This document shows positions 2,491 to 57,621 of a stretch of 64,000 nucleotides of DNA, piece by piece. The DNA comes from Candidatus Heimdallarchaeum endolithica. GTDB taxonomy: Archaea; Asgardarchaeota; Heimdallarchaeia; Heimdallarchaeales; Heimdallarchaeaceae. The stretch covers positions 448,001-512,000 of the forward strand of contig CP084167.1 in NCBI GenBank assembly GCA_021513715.1, given 5' to 3'. The stretch's first letter is position 1, and each line of letters begins with the position of its first letter. Under the pieces are notes generated by a model. The model made no database searches. It worked only from the letters and a program-made list of their open reading frames with translations, and was not told the DNA's origin. Made by a program: the position numbers and the translations under genes.

Positions 2491-5400
2491 ATGAGAAAAA
2501 ATATTAAAATATTATTTATTGCTTTTGGAATAATAGTTTTTAGTGCATGTTTTCTCTATGTTTCCTTTTTGGAATTTCATTTTAAATACCAACATAATAA
2601 GGTATTACATTCTTTAAATATAAATAAGAATACTGAAAATCAAGATTTCTTTAGTGAAAACCTGTCTGAATCAAAGCAAAATTTTACCAATTATAAAAAA
2701 TTATATCCATCTTTTGGTTTTAAAACAAAATGGGCTCGAGACTTGTTCTATCATGATGCTCCACTTACAGCTTCAGCAGATTTAGATGGAGACGGAAAAA
2801 AGGAAATAATTGCAACTGATTCTTATAAAATTATCTGTTTAGATAGTGATGGAAATGAACTTTGGAGCTATCCAGGAGTGCCTAGTTATGCACAACCCAC
2901 AATAATAGATATTGACAACGATTCATCTCTTGAAATACTTTATAGAGTAGAAAATTCTATATATTGTTTAAATAGAACAGGATATAAAGAATGGGTATAT
3001 AATTCAATATCAAGTGATTTTTGTGTCGCTGATATAAATAATGATAACTTCTTTGAAATTCTATTCTATAATTATTCAGACTTAGTAAATCTCTCGCATA
3101 ATGGTAGTGTAATTTGGATATATCATAATTCTTTTAACTTCACTATGTCTCCACGGGTTGCAGACATTAACAATGATAATTATATGGAAATTATAGTTGG
3201 AGATGAAGATAACAATGTTTACAGTTTTTATCACACAAAAATACTACATTGGTCGTCTAAACTTGATGGAAAACCTATATTTTCGGCTTCTTTTGGAGAT
3301 ATAAATAATGATGGAAGTATTAAGATATTTTTGTGTCTAGATAACAATAAGGTATATTGCATTAATGTAACAGGAGGTATTGAGTGGTATTATGTTTGTG
3401 CTCATCCCCTTTTCTCATCTCCAGTTGTTACAGATATTAATAACGATTTTGTTCCAGAAATTCTTTTTGTTGATAAGCTCAATCTTTATTGCTTAGACTC
3501 AGAAGGTAATATCTTGTTTAATAAAATAGTTGCTGGTTTATCAATCTGCGGAGAACCATCAATTGCTGATTTTAATGGAGACAACTATATGGAAATAATA
3601 GTTTATACGTGGGATTATAAATTTATTTGTTATGATTGTGAAGGAAATGTAATTTTAACATTAGATACCAAAACAGGAGAACCAATAAGATATCATTATG
3701 CTACTCAATATGTAACTGATCTTGATAATAATGGACTTCTTGATGTGTTGTTTTATTCAATAGAATTACAGCTTTGTTGCTTAGAAGTAAATAATGTGCA
3801 AAAAAGCGGCAATGCTACATGGTACAGTTTAAGTGGATCAAATTTTCATACAGGTTGGGATGATGTGGATGGAGATTATTTAGATAAAGCAACTGAAGAA
3901 ATAGTTTATAAAACAAATGTGTCTCAATCAGATAGCGATTTAGATGGATTGTCAGATTCTTACGAAGTAATGATCTCTTTTACCTCTCCGATAAATAATG
4001 ATACTGATTCTGATGGATTGTTGGATGGAGAGGAGGTCTTAACTTATTCTACATTGCCAACAAATAATGATACTGATTCTGATGGATTGTTAGATGGTGA
4101 GGAGGTCTTAACTTATTTTACATTGCCAACAAATAATGATACTGATTCTGATGGATTGTTGGATGGAGAGGAGGTCTTAACTTATTCTACATTGCCAACA
4201 AATAATGATACTGATTCTGATGGATTGTTGGATGGAGAGGAGGTCTTAACTTATTCTACATTGCCAACAAATAATGATACTGATTCTGATGGATTGTTGG
4301 ATGGAGAGGAGGTCTTAACTTATTCTACATTACCAACAAATAATGATACTGATAACGACGATATTCCTGATGGTTGGGAAGTAGAGAATGGACTTGACCC
4401 TTTAGTTAACGATACAAGTGGTGATCTAGACTCTGATGGTTTAACTAATGTTCAGGAATATACATATTCTACTCAAGCTAATAACGATGACACTGATTCT
4501 GATGGATTGTTGGATGGAGAGGAGGTCTTAACTTATTCTACATCACCAACAGATAATGATACTGATTCTGATGGATTGTTAGATGGAGAGGAGGTCTTAA
4601 CTTATTCTACATCACCAACAGATAATGATACTGATTCTGATGGATTGTTAGATGGTGAGGAGATCTTAATTTACTCTACATTGCCAGATGATCCTGATTG
4701 TGACAACGACTTTCTCACAGATTATGAGGAAGTAAAAATATATGATACAAATCCATTTTACAGTGACACTGATTATGATGGTATTGGTGATTACAGTGAA
4801 ATAATTGACTATGGAACAGATCCAAAAAATCCTGACACAGATGGAGATGGATTGAATGATATGACAGAGCTACCACCAGATTCTGTTACAAGTCCAGTAG
4901 ACCCTGATACTGATTCTGATGGATTGTTGGATGGAGAGGAGGTCTTAACTTATTCTACATCACCTGATGACTCTGATTCAGATGACGATAACATGCCTGA
5001 TGGTTGGGAAGTAGAGAATGGACTTGACCCTTTAGTTAACGACACAAGTGGTGATCTAGACTCTGATGGTTTAACTAATCTTCAGGAATATATCTCTTCC
5101 ACTCAAGCTAATAACGATGATACTGATTCTGATGGATTGTTGGATGGAGAGGAGGTCTTAACTTATTCTACATTGCCAACAAATAATGATACTGATACAG
5201 ATGGATTGTTAGATGGTGAGGAGGTCTTAACTTATTCTACATTGCCAACAAATAATGATACTGATACAGATGGATTGTTGGATGGAGAGGAGGTCTTAAC
5301 TTATTCTACATCATCAACAGATAATGATACTGATTCTGATGGATTGTTGGATGGAGAGGAAATCCTGAATTATAGTTGCAATCCTACCTTAAATGATACT

Positions 5401-57400: not shown

Positions 57401-57621
57401 CATTTTGATGAAATCGTAGCTAGTTTTATTGGTGGTAGACTAGAATTGGATGAGTGACAATTACTATTGCTTAGACTAAAAAAATAATTAGGTTTTACAC
57501 CAATTGAGCATTCATTATATCCATCGAGTTTTATAATTAGAAATAGTAAGAAGATTATAAACAACAAAAGAAAAGTATTAGAATGAAATTGTTTACCAAA
57601 AAATCTATTTACTCTTTTCAT
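51406..57621 (-). CDS. Giant single-pass receptor-like protein: FG-GAP/PQQ propeller, TSP3-like stalk with an Ig-like insert, TM, about 300-aa cytoplasmic coiled coil, PCI-like winged helix and conserved tail
   Basis: ADVDSDGNLEI-type blades; 71-aa repeat array; DTEPPVI...VNDTSGN Ig-like domain; TM IFLFITLPLLFVIFFIFVIVF; INVDKLVFLLKLRSKSSLFSWL; ends IDSLLKQFEQWSDSKDGKRE. Confidence 0.9.
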   Translation of the reverse strand: MKRVNRFFGKQFHSNTFLLLFIIFLLFLIIKLDGYNECSIGVKPNYFFSLSNSNCHSSNSSLPPIKLATISSKWTYSTSGPILYSPKIADVDSDGNLEILVSSGDNCLYCLNAQTGSLKWKYTASDDTIDLSGVPLANLDADSYLEIIYKSRGGTLYCIDGLNGEEQWSVNIGGEAVPAIGNVDSDSNLEVVDISSGGDIYIISGSSGSIEWTIDININCDRSSPAIADVNNDGINDLIFQQYSPVSVYCVNSNDHSVFWSFTPSPSVESQYISPLVADLDGNGKAEVVINTYSKIFVLNSSDGTEQWSHDFSSASGGKLSYSNPVIFDLDFDQNLEICNGVALYRGNNGSVIWVDGIDYVTRLVTGDIDGDRQLELIVSRDTDSLEFYNIEDHSYIDSYDTGGYVDGTALVYDVDNDNNIEVIFGSQDNNVYCIEFSSPSAGLRSYIGMSGVDIYNSNNNLRNDVDLDGLSIYTEKEIGSSDVSSDTDGDGINDGEEYVIWQTEPLNQDSDGDSMPDGWEINYSLDPLIDDSSGDPDVDNLSNLDEYIFGTNPTTSDSDGDSMPDGWEVNNSLDPLTDDSALDPDNDGLTNLEEYTNNCDPQDSDSDNDGLTDGEEVNTYFTNPTNTDSDGDSMPDGWEVNNSLDPLTDDSALDPDNDGLTNLEEYTNNCDPQDSDSDNDGLTDGEEVNTYFTNPTNTDSDGDSMPDGWEVNNSLDPLTDDSALDPDNDGLTNLEEYTNNCDPQDSDSDNDGLTDGEEVNTYFTNPTNTDSDGDSMPDGWEVNNSLDPLTDDSALDPDNDGLTNLEEYTNNCDPQDSDSDNDGLTDGEEVNTYSTNPLDSDSDSDSMPDGWEINYSLNPLVDDASEDTDNDGLTNLEEYSQSTDPQDSDSDNDGLTDGEEVNTYSTNPTNTDSDDDSMPDGWEVNNSLDPLTDDSALDPDNDGLTNLEEYTNNCDPQDSDSDSDGLTDGEEVNTYSTDPNDSDSDDDSMPDGWEVNNSLDPLTDDSALDPDNDGLTNLEEYTNNCDPQDSDSDNDGLTDGEEVNTYSTNPTNTDSDGDSMPDGWEVNNSLDPLTDDSALDPDNDGLTNLEEYTNNCDPQDSDSDSDGLTDGEEVNTYSTDPNDSDSDDDSMPDGWEVNNSLDPLTDDSALDPDNDGLTNLEEYTNNCDPQDSDSDNDGLTDGEEVNTYFTNPLDSDSDSDSMPDGWEINYSLNPLVDDASEDTDNDGLTNLEEYSQSTDPQDSDSDSDGLTDGEEVNTYSTDPNDSDSDDDSMPDGWEVNNSLDPLTNDSALDADSDNLTNLEEYIYDTDPQDSDSDNDTFSDYEEIQTGTDPNDSNDYPDTEPPVIGNIPVISNTEEQNLTFSIVVTDNVFVDLVFCYYNYTGHPDFIQIEMTNVSNDNYTANLGTFTAGTKVSFYVWVNDTSGNHAYTELVTITVEPSIIDSDGDSIPDAYEIANGLNPNFDDSNDDLDNDGLLNIDEYQLGTYANNSDSDSDTLLDGEEVHTYSTDPLDSDTDSDGMPDGWEVYHTLDPLNNDTAEDPDSDNLTNLEEYKYGTNPSNSDSDDDGIPDGYEVLNSLNPLHNDANEDLDNDDLSNIDEYLLGTYANNNDSDDDGMPDGWEVENSLNPLANDSSDDIDNDGLTNLEENTNFTDPNNSDTDDDGLLDGQEVKTYFTDPNNSDSDNDGLLDGQEVKTYFTDPNNSDSDNDGVSDYDEITYYNTDPNNSDTDDDGILDGEEIANGTNPLKKELSYLHIFLFITLPLLFVIFFIFVIVFSRKKKKRNILLGFVQQADKLERLFRDLVHHKNSFFDSAFVNDYIQFSNDFLSFVRSFATHFLSQPELLKESEWIETKRRVTTLLDEFRDFTAKEIEKIDLEIEVNRIKKVLEKTTFKDATQLNAVVDISNFDMLLNTFTSIQNLISDTKNFIDEFTFSKLASYWSKLENLIKSKEIEVKQKKDEIEELLNEIKGLYLDYQLNQERLETLRRIIAVHRKINVDKLVFLLKLRSKSSLFSWLKNQELGFKYVIQDDVIIFEQESIATEREKDEISQVIDSLLKQFEQWSDSKDGKRE
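53750..55950 (-). repeat. Intragenic near-perfect 213-bp (71-aa) tandem repeat array, about 10 copies
   Basis: gggcatggaatc recurs at 55288, 55501 and 55714; unit DSDGDSMPDGWEVNNSLDPLTDDSALDPDNDGLTNLEEYTNNCDPQDSDSDNDGLTDGEEVNTYFTNPTNT. Confidence 0.95.

Follow-up and report, generated by a model that had tools for sequence, protein, structure and literature searches.

Six window genes with a shared C-terminal helix

The window analysed here comprises 64,000 nucleotides of the genome of Candidatus Heimdallarchaeum endolithica (assembly GCA_021513715.1, contig CP084167.1, positions 448,001 to 512,000), a genome that consists of one 3.33-Mb contig with 31% GC. Six genes of the window encode proteins that end in related helical peptides of about 20 residues, hereafter the tail, and in five of the six the tail is the last helix of a ~100-residue module with a PCI-type winged helix; the tail is therefore not a free motif. 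A first-pass annotation had listed the six tails from the sequence alone, and all six were confirmed at their coordinates, in frame and with a stop codon immediately after.

Three of the six genes encode giant surface proteins. The gene at 2491-7323 (forward strand) specifies 1610 amino acids with an N-terminal hydrophobic segment, an FG-GAP/propeller region, TSP3-type calcium repeats and a transmembrane (TM) segment near residue 1559, and its cytoplasmic part of 32 residues holds the tail (7264-7323) and no winged helix. The 1455-residue protein encoded at 9777-14144 (forward strand) has an FG-GAP propeller, TSP3 repeats, a TM segment near residue 1285 and a 151-residue cytoplasmic part that ends in the module (13836-14144), in which a helix and the winged helix (13836-14045) precede the tail (14079-14144). 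On the reverse strand, the gene at 51406-57621 encodes 2071 residues with a propeller, 15 TSP3-type repeats, a TM segment near residue 1756 and a 296-residue cytoplasmic part ending in the module (51406-51717; winged helix 51508-51717, tail 51406-51468). A Binary_toxB Pfam match in this protein falls in the calcium-repeat stalk and gives no indication of a toxin. In all three, the N-terminal hydrophobic segment and the second, TM segment place the tail in the cytoplasm, as had been annotated.

The other three proteins lack TM segments and are soluble, again as annotated, and all are encoded on the forward strand. The 256-residue protein (33061-33831) carries the module (33535-33831; winged helix 33535-33747, tail 33769-33831) behind an N-terminal part without a Pfam match, and its gene heads a two-gene unit that is repeated at genome position 789 kb. 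A 264-residue leucine-rich repeat (LRR) protein (33841-34635) has a winged helix (34372-34578) followed by a shortened tail (34588-34635) that lacks W, E and GK, and a 291-residue protein (49627-50502) ends in a winged helix (50206-50415) and a tail (50440-50502). The N-terminal domains had been described as different in all six proteins; the three giants, however, share one ectodomain plan of beta-propeller and TSP3-type calcium repeats.

The first-pass annotation had staked the tail on its enrichment at C-termini, and that enrichment was found. A hidden Markov model (HMM) built from the five clear tails alone matched 20 proteins of the host genome at E<0.01, and 22 after iteration; in 22 of 22 the match lies at most three residues from the C-terminus, and the strongest internal match in the proteome has E=0.15. 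The weakest true match scored 25.9 bits, compared with at most 9.4 bits in the reversed proteome and at most 16.5 bits among 28,890 shuffled C-termini. Furthermore, a regular expression for the tail, run over 992,731 residues, gave 18 C-terminal matches and one internal match. The five clear tails are 45-67% identical in DNA, which agrees with the annotation that no DNA repeat is involved. These data demonstrate that the six tails are a real feature, far above chance. No match was found in the phage and plasmid records searched.

An alignment of 90 tails, selected for clarity, retains I0, D1, L3, L4, F/Y7, W10, E11, G16 and K17, with I in 100% at position 0, L in 97% at +3, L/M/I in 95% at +4, F/Y in 100% at +7 and W/F/M/Y in 93% at +10. 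The conserved core is acidic (mean charge -3.1). The terminal lysine is invariant: it is found in 90 of 90 aligned tails and is preceded by G in 88%, and in 89 of the tails its distance from the end is 1-3 residues. The tail of the 1610-residue protein, from which it had been concluded that the tail can occur on its own, is indeed the only tail-only copy. It scores lowest among the 22 and has neither the conserved E nor the usual spacing, two residues being missing between W and GK; its E of 7.9e-5 was obtained with the 90-sequence profile, which includes it. The degenerate tail at 34588 has no score with the tail profile, but its protein belongs to the family by its winged helix (E=3.8e-8).

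Several variants of the tail were seen. Lokiarchaeia have a second, longer subtype, in genomes with and without the E2 enzyme UFC1, and many of these longer tails likewise close with GK or SK and a single further residue. One membrane protein (L053:2951-4066, genome G150) carries a tail-like helix with GK at its N-terminus, so the motif is not invariably C-terminal. Two readings of the lysine-bearing end were rejected: a dilysine KKxx/KxKxx retrieval signal (Lys at -3 and -4 or -5) fits only 18 of 101 GK-ending relatives, and activation of the tail by an E1 enzyme after cleavage between G and K is at odds with a variable residue before G and the absence of a ubiquitin fold.

The annotation had likened the tail to the C-terminal helices through which PCI-complex subunits assemble. 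That likeness is closer than had been noted, in that a real PCI-type winged helix, missed at the time, precedes the tail. A profile of the pre-tail part matches 26 proteins of the host genome, each 15-31 residues from the end and followed by a tail-like helix, and in a public library the module profile matches 567 clusters at 50% identity. An AlphaFold2 model of the copy at 33535-33831 (mean pLDDT, the predicted local distance difference test score, 80.5) predicts a helix, a winged helix and a terminal 20-residue helix (H11-31, E34-36, H37-43, H49-58, E64-73, H79-98). PF01399 (PCI) matches 54 of 97 module members at E<=0.1; against a cut-off of 22 bits, three relatives score above (29.7, 24.4 and 33.5) and the window copy scores 20.8 bits. 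Module members have family matches to PCI, CSN8 and Paf67. The top folds are Rpn12, proteasome lid and CSN7 chains (Z 5.9-6.8), followed by UFL1/DDRGK1 chains (Z 5.2-5.4), all middling scores, as is that of the Rpn12 superposition (Z 6.8, root-mean-square deviation 1.9 over 60 residues); Foldseek places CSN and lid subunits first, with alignments of about 90-100 columns and E>0.04. Pfam, fold and Atlas searches thus concur in placing the module, by sequence and predicted structure, in the PCI type.

Profile and fold make the module a PCI domain, but it is not a lid, CSN or eIF3 subunit, and by family match it is neither UFL1 nor DDRGK1. The conserved N-terminal helical repeats and the fixed PCI-MPN octamer that are the hallmark of lid, CSN and eIF3 are lacking. 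Pfam E3_UFM1_ligase and DDRGK are absent among the 25 families listed for module members, searches of the genomes with these two families matched other genes, save one weak winged-helix match in a cluster gene, and no convincing UFL1 orthologue was found in the host genome (best E 1.7e-4). In the winged helix, the putative recognition helix combines acidic with hydrophobic residues and has a near-invariant W. A group of relatives (P0093-P0095, P0118, P0121 and P0136-P0138) has the winged helix with a shortened tail and then a zinc ribbon.

Association with a UFM1-type gene cluster

A gene cluster that came to light while MPN partners were being sought lies 15-24 kb past the end of the window. 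It encodes a zinc-ribbon protein, an E1, a JAB protease, a ubiquitin-like tag, an E2, an ESCRT-II-like EAP30 protein with tandem winged helices, and an SPFH protein; the genes for E1, E2 and tag fall within genome positions 531553-534414. Searches with the zinc-ribbon protein gave no family assignment. The E1 is nearest UBA5 (E 3e-72, vs 1e-37 for MoeB). The E2 passes the Pfam UFC1 cut-off, its model matches UFC1 with Z 15.7 and other E2s with 8.9, and the catalytic Cys is invariant in the UFC1-like E2s. The tag ends in an invariant V-G, and its UFM1 Pfam match is weak (E 0.059). The cluster therefore has what marks UFM1 conjugation: a UBA5-type E1, a UFC1-type E2 with catalytic Cys, and a tag ending in VG.

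Further observations concern the cluster genes themselves. The host UFC1-like gene has no ATG, GTG or TTG at the site (genome 533830-533845) where Ca. Heimdallarchaeum aukensis has Met, and the remaining frame is intact; the start codon seems to carry one inserted base, which would be an assembly error or mean that a nearby ATT is used. An 897-residue protein (L127:7831-10524, G231) has a UFC1 and then a UFM1-like domain at its end, and fusions in the reverse order, UFM1-UFC1, are present in G040, G086, G118, G033, G244 and G248; loss of the E1 C-terminal helix upon such fusion was considered and dropped, the two being uncorrelated. A defence role is unsupported, since PADLOC gave generic E1 and JAB matches only.

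Across 400 Asgard genomes, the tail was detected in 38 and a UFC1-like E2 in 37, and both were present in 24, where 3.5 were expected (tail only 14, UFC1 only 13, neither 349). The profile was run on Asgard genomes, and the four named relatives that were checked all belong to Heimdallarchaeia. The tail alignment had been drawn partly from cluster loci in 12 genomes; when these seeding genomes are left out, the counts are 13 with both, 13 tail only, 13 UFC1 only and 349 with neither. Moreover, UFC1 is present in 12 of the 13 genomes with a strong full-length module, as judged by a profile that predates the discovery of the cluster. In eleven genomes, among them G302, the cluster contains or adjoins tail genes, which are placed between core cluster genes in G297, G308 and G162 and flank the cluster in G248, G258, G278, G251, G244, G040 and G003, and this arrangement is found in many Loki- and Heimdallarchaeia. 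The pattern within genera is patchy: in one genus of 25 genomes, the sole E2, that of G162, and a tail gene are 3.5 kb apart. Tailless winged-helix matches are common in genomes without UFC1, and the association therefore concerns the tailed form. Taken together, these data make a link between the tail module and the UFM1-type cluster very likely.

Candidate partners of the tail

The core of the annotation, that variable proteins plug into one cytoplasmic machine through a C-terminal helix, still stands; the machine to which the genome context points is the UFM1-type cluster, which that annotation had not seen. The favoured reading, drawn by analogy with the human system and given a probability of roughly 0.4, is that the tail docks on the UFC1-like E2 and that the tailed proteins act as adaptors. 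The tail module would be the common plug of an interchangeable adaptor library for the Asgard UFM1-type conjugation system. The helix face I0-L3-L4-F7-W10-E11 would enter the backside pocket of the E2 and push out the C-terminal helix of the E1, which in humans is the role of the UFL1 N-terminal helix. Each tailed protein would then be a non-catalytic, E3-like scaffold made of a single chain, delivering charged E2 to the ligands of its LRR, WD40, TPR or membrane part.

The human pocket provides the model for this proposal. It is bound by the UBA5 C-terminal helix via L394, L397, M398, M401 and M404 (PMC8481289) and, in turn, by the UFL1 N-terminal helix via I8, L11, F15 and Q19 (PMC10702826, PMC10937380). 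Docking on the E2 is favoured because the offsets match, tail positions 0, +3, +4, +7, +10 and +11 corresponding in spacing to both UFC1-binding helices; because a similar acidic helix closes most of the cluster E1s; because the pocket is hydrophobic; and because one E2 carries such a helix in cis. Six pocket positions, which we take to be the equivalents of human UFC1 L32, Y36, L39, V43, F54 and L56 (a numbering that is partly presumed), stay hydrophobic in 36 Asgard E2s. The E2 in question (L036:9611-10261, G003) resembles UFC1 and continues through an acidic linker into a UBA5-like C-terminal helix, modelled at pLDDT 77 after a disordered linker; it bears on docking indirectly, and the predicted cis helix is possibly autoinhibitory.

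It should be noted that several observations weigh against docking on the E2. The spacing fits any amphipathic helix, and 73 of 2889 C-termini match a generic version of it; a matrix made from the E1 helices ranks the 22 tails merely 4th to 609th, so the likeness is real but unspecific, and a comparison of the tail and E1 profiles was not significant (P=0.31). The tail profile retrieves neither UFL1 nor UBA5 from a PDB library that omits short chains, the C-terminal helix is missing from several E1s, and the equivalents of I40 and R55 in the Asgard E2 pocket are variable. Fourteen genomes have tail matches without UFC1; many of these are fragments, internal matches or drafts that hold other cluster genes, but G147 (100% complete, 10 contigs), G142, G299 and G318 are not accounted for in that way. 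Co-occurrence indicates the whole cluster and no single protein in it, and kin genomes are not independent, so that p-values for the overlap are too strong. Finally, docking alone leaves the invariant terminal lysine unexplained. A complex prediction of the UFC1-like E2 with a 35-residue tail scored 0.03 against a mark of 0.32 and counts neither way.

If the tail does dock on the E2, a wider picture may be drawn, although more tentatively: dozens of surface receptors and LRR, WD40 and TPR sensors with a winged helix and an E2-docking helix would make up a modular library of E3-like receptors serving UFM1 tagging, a set laid out in the manner of the F-box proteins and a single-chain forerunner, or parallel, of UFL1-DDRGK1, and the giant adhesin-like proteins would signal, or be sorted, via ufmylation.

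The module could instead bind another product of the cluster, the EAP30-like, zinc-ribbon or SPFH protein (the last a scaffold), and so be linked to UFM1 tagging or membrane sorting; we give this a lesser but appreciable chance. These three genes share the cluster in most loci, zinc-ribbon and EAP30-like winged helices are fused in three genomes (L122:6070-7464 in G219, G337:C107 and G338:C221), and PCI-to-winged-helix contacts have been proposed for other archaeal ESCRT loci (PMC10936438). G302, G241 and G287 combine tails with one of the three genes and have no detected UFC1, but all are drafts, with the cluster piece at a contig end in G302 and G241, and no tail-like ligand is known for EAP30-like, zinc-ribbon or SPFH proteins.

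The terminal lysine, which docking leaves aside, is central to an alternative that we consider unlikely, namely that the tail is a substrate tag whose helix recruits the E2 and whose GK lysine accepts the UFM1-like tag, marking the protein for sorting or turnover without an E3. The lysine is kept in all 90 aligned tails, near the end in 89 of them, the longer Lokiarchaeial tails often keep a GK or SK ending, human RPL26 is modified at K132/K134 (PMC10952357), and the host genome has no convincing UFL1 orthologue. However, the aligned tails were picked for clarity, the LRR partners are without GK, and G-K could be a helix cap and contact residue, K17 lying on the conserved helix face.

It is improbable that the tails bundle together like the PCI-subunit helices of the lid, CSN and eIF3, with JAB as the MPN partner and the receptors in mixed oligomers. 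The order of elements is that of eukaryotic PCI subunits, CSN and lid subunits lead the Foldseek rows, a helical-PCI and LRR-PCI gene pair recurs, and the host JAB protein has a similar terminal helix; that helix is not kept in other genomes, the tail core is acidic, and distant proteins keep D, E and the terminal K nearly invariant, which fits one fixed partner better.

Very improbable is a DNA-binding winged helix in membrane-tethered regulators, with a dimerising tail and a cluster linkage due to hitch-hiking in variable islands: MarR/ArsR-type regulators occur among the weak fold matches and the giant genes are recent gains or losses, but the putative recognition helix is acidic and hydrophobic with its near-invariant W, the family matches are PCI, CSN8 and Paf67, and tail genes are interleaved with core cluster genes in independent lineages. 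Hardly any weight is left for the annotated analogy with ESCRT-III, in which the tail, as a C-terminal amphipathic helix, would bind, in the manner of MIM1, to the MIT domain of Vps4 or of ESCRT-III regulators. MIM1 motifs carry basic residues flanking their leucines, and these are absent from the acidic tail core. One MIT protein is encoded in the genome and an ESCRT-II-like gene in the cluster, but the MIT gene lies at 1.70 Mb, far from every tail gene, and ESCRT is general in Asgard archaea (PMC10936438), whereas the tail, which follows the distribution of UFC1, occurs in about 10% of genomes.

Repertoire, neighbouring genes and known systems

The N-terminal parts of module proteins range over propeller or beta-helix ectodomains on calcium-repeat stalks, LRR, WD40, TPR, a GTPase-like domain, multi-TM anchors and helical domains. 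Because 17 of the 28 large calcium-repeat surface proteins of the host genome end in the module or tail, the module may be the main cytoplasmic output of a variable surface repertoire. One module protein is 96% identical to its counterpart in Ca. H. aukensis PM71, the closest named relative, and the syntenic H. aukensis region keeps the three soluble tail genes and lacks the three giant ones, which by this sequence comparison were gained or lost recently. In two orthologue pairs the tail is more conserved than the body (96 vs 84%, and 84 vs 69% for the 291-residue protein), but not in the LRR protein with the degenerate tail. Broken copies of LRR-plus-module genes at genome 309-314 kb and 794 kb are a sign of fast repertoire turnover.

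Other window genes include a four-gene unit at 22168-28819, read by eye as NurA, HerA, Mre11 and Rad50 and partly duplicated in the H. aukensis assembly; a tandem double UvrA at 43449-49238 (1929 residues, 95% identical in H. aukensis); and an Eco57I-type restriction-modification protein at 60051-63311, for which the syntenic H. aukensis stretch gave no match. The motifs of a heavy-metal P-type ATPase were recognised by eye at 38520-40280, where the gene lies in pieces with its middle (about 38995-39694) on the opposite strand, which suggests an internal inversion or mis-assembly. Truncated transposase-like open reading frames were seen by eye at 1334-2026, adjoining the gene of the 1610-residue protein, and at 41288-41791.

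Asgard UFM1 and Asgard PCI domains have each been published, separately. UFC1 has been called eukaryote-only, while UFL1- and DDRGK1-like Asgard proteins are reported (PMC10183829), and Asgard UFM1 was described recently (PMC12962969), with no targets or ligase in the passages found. No description of the tail, the module or the cluster link was found in the literature searched, which largely comprised papers free of subscription. The module supplies candidate adaptors or substrates for the Asgard UFM1 system, together with a 20-residue peptide, and it is relevant to how PCI proteins arose and how the competition between UFL1 and UBA5 helices on UFC1 began.

F-box, SOCS-box and BTB substrate receptors couple recognition domains of the LRR or WD40 type to a common conjugation machine through one short, invariable module. 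The layout is analogous here, but the fold is unrelated, and cullin and RING were not seen in the cluster loci. The HTH/PCI domains of Asgard ESCRT-associated proteins and membrane kinases (PMC10936438) share a small C-terminal PCI-type winged helix in multidomain proteins, whereas the tail motif, its expansion and a link to UFM1 genes are not reported in the passages found of that paper. With PCI subunits of the lid, CSN and eIF3 (PF01399, PF10075) the module shares a winged helix followed by a C-terminal helix, as well as Pfam and fold matches; unlike them, the Asgard proteins have no conserved helical-repeat N-terminus, are fused to surface proteins, LRR, WD40 or TPR, and form a patchy, fast-changing set in place of a fixed six-subunit one. 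From UFL1-DDRGK1 (UFBP1) the module differs in having one winged helix, a C-terminal position of the helix, dozens of paralogues with variable sensor domains and no DDRGK or UFL1 Pfam match, with JAB instead of a UFSP protease in the cluster and E2 binding that is inferred. The likeness to UFL1-DDRGK1 and to the UFC1-binding sequence of UBA5 nevertheless extends to PCI-like winged helices with a terminal amphipathic helix attached, to the I/L/F spacing of that helix, to forms anchored in the membrane, and to the association with UBA5, UFC1 and UFM1 homologues.

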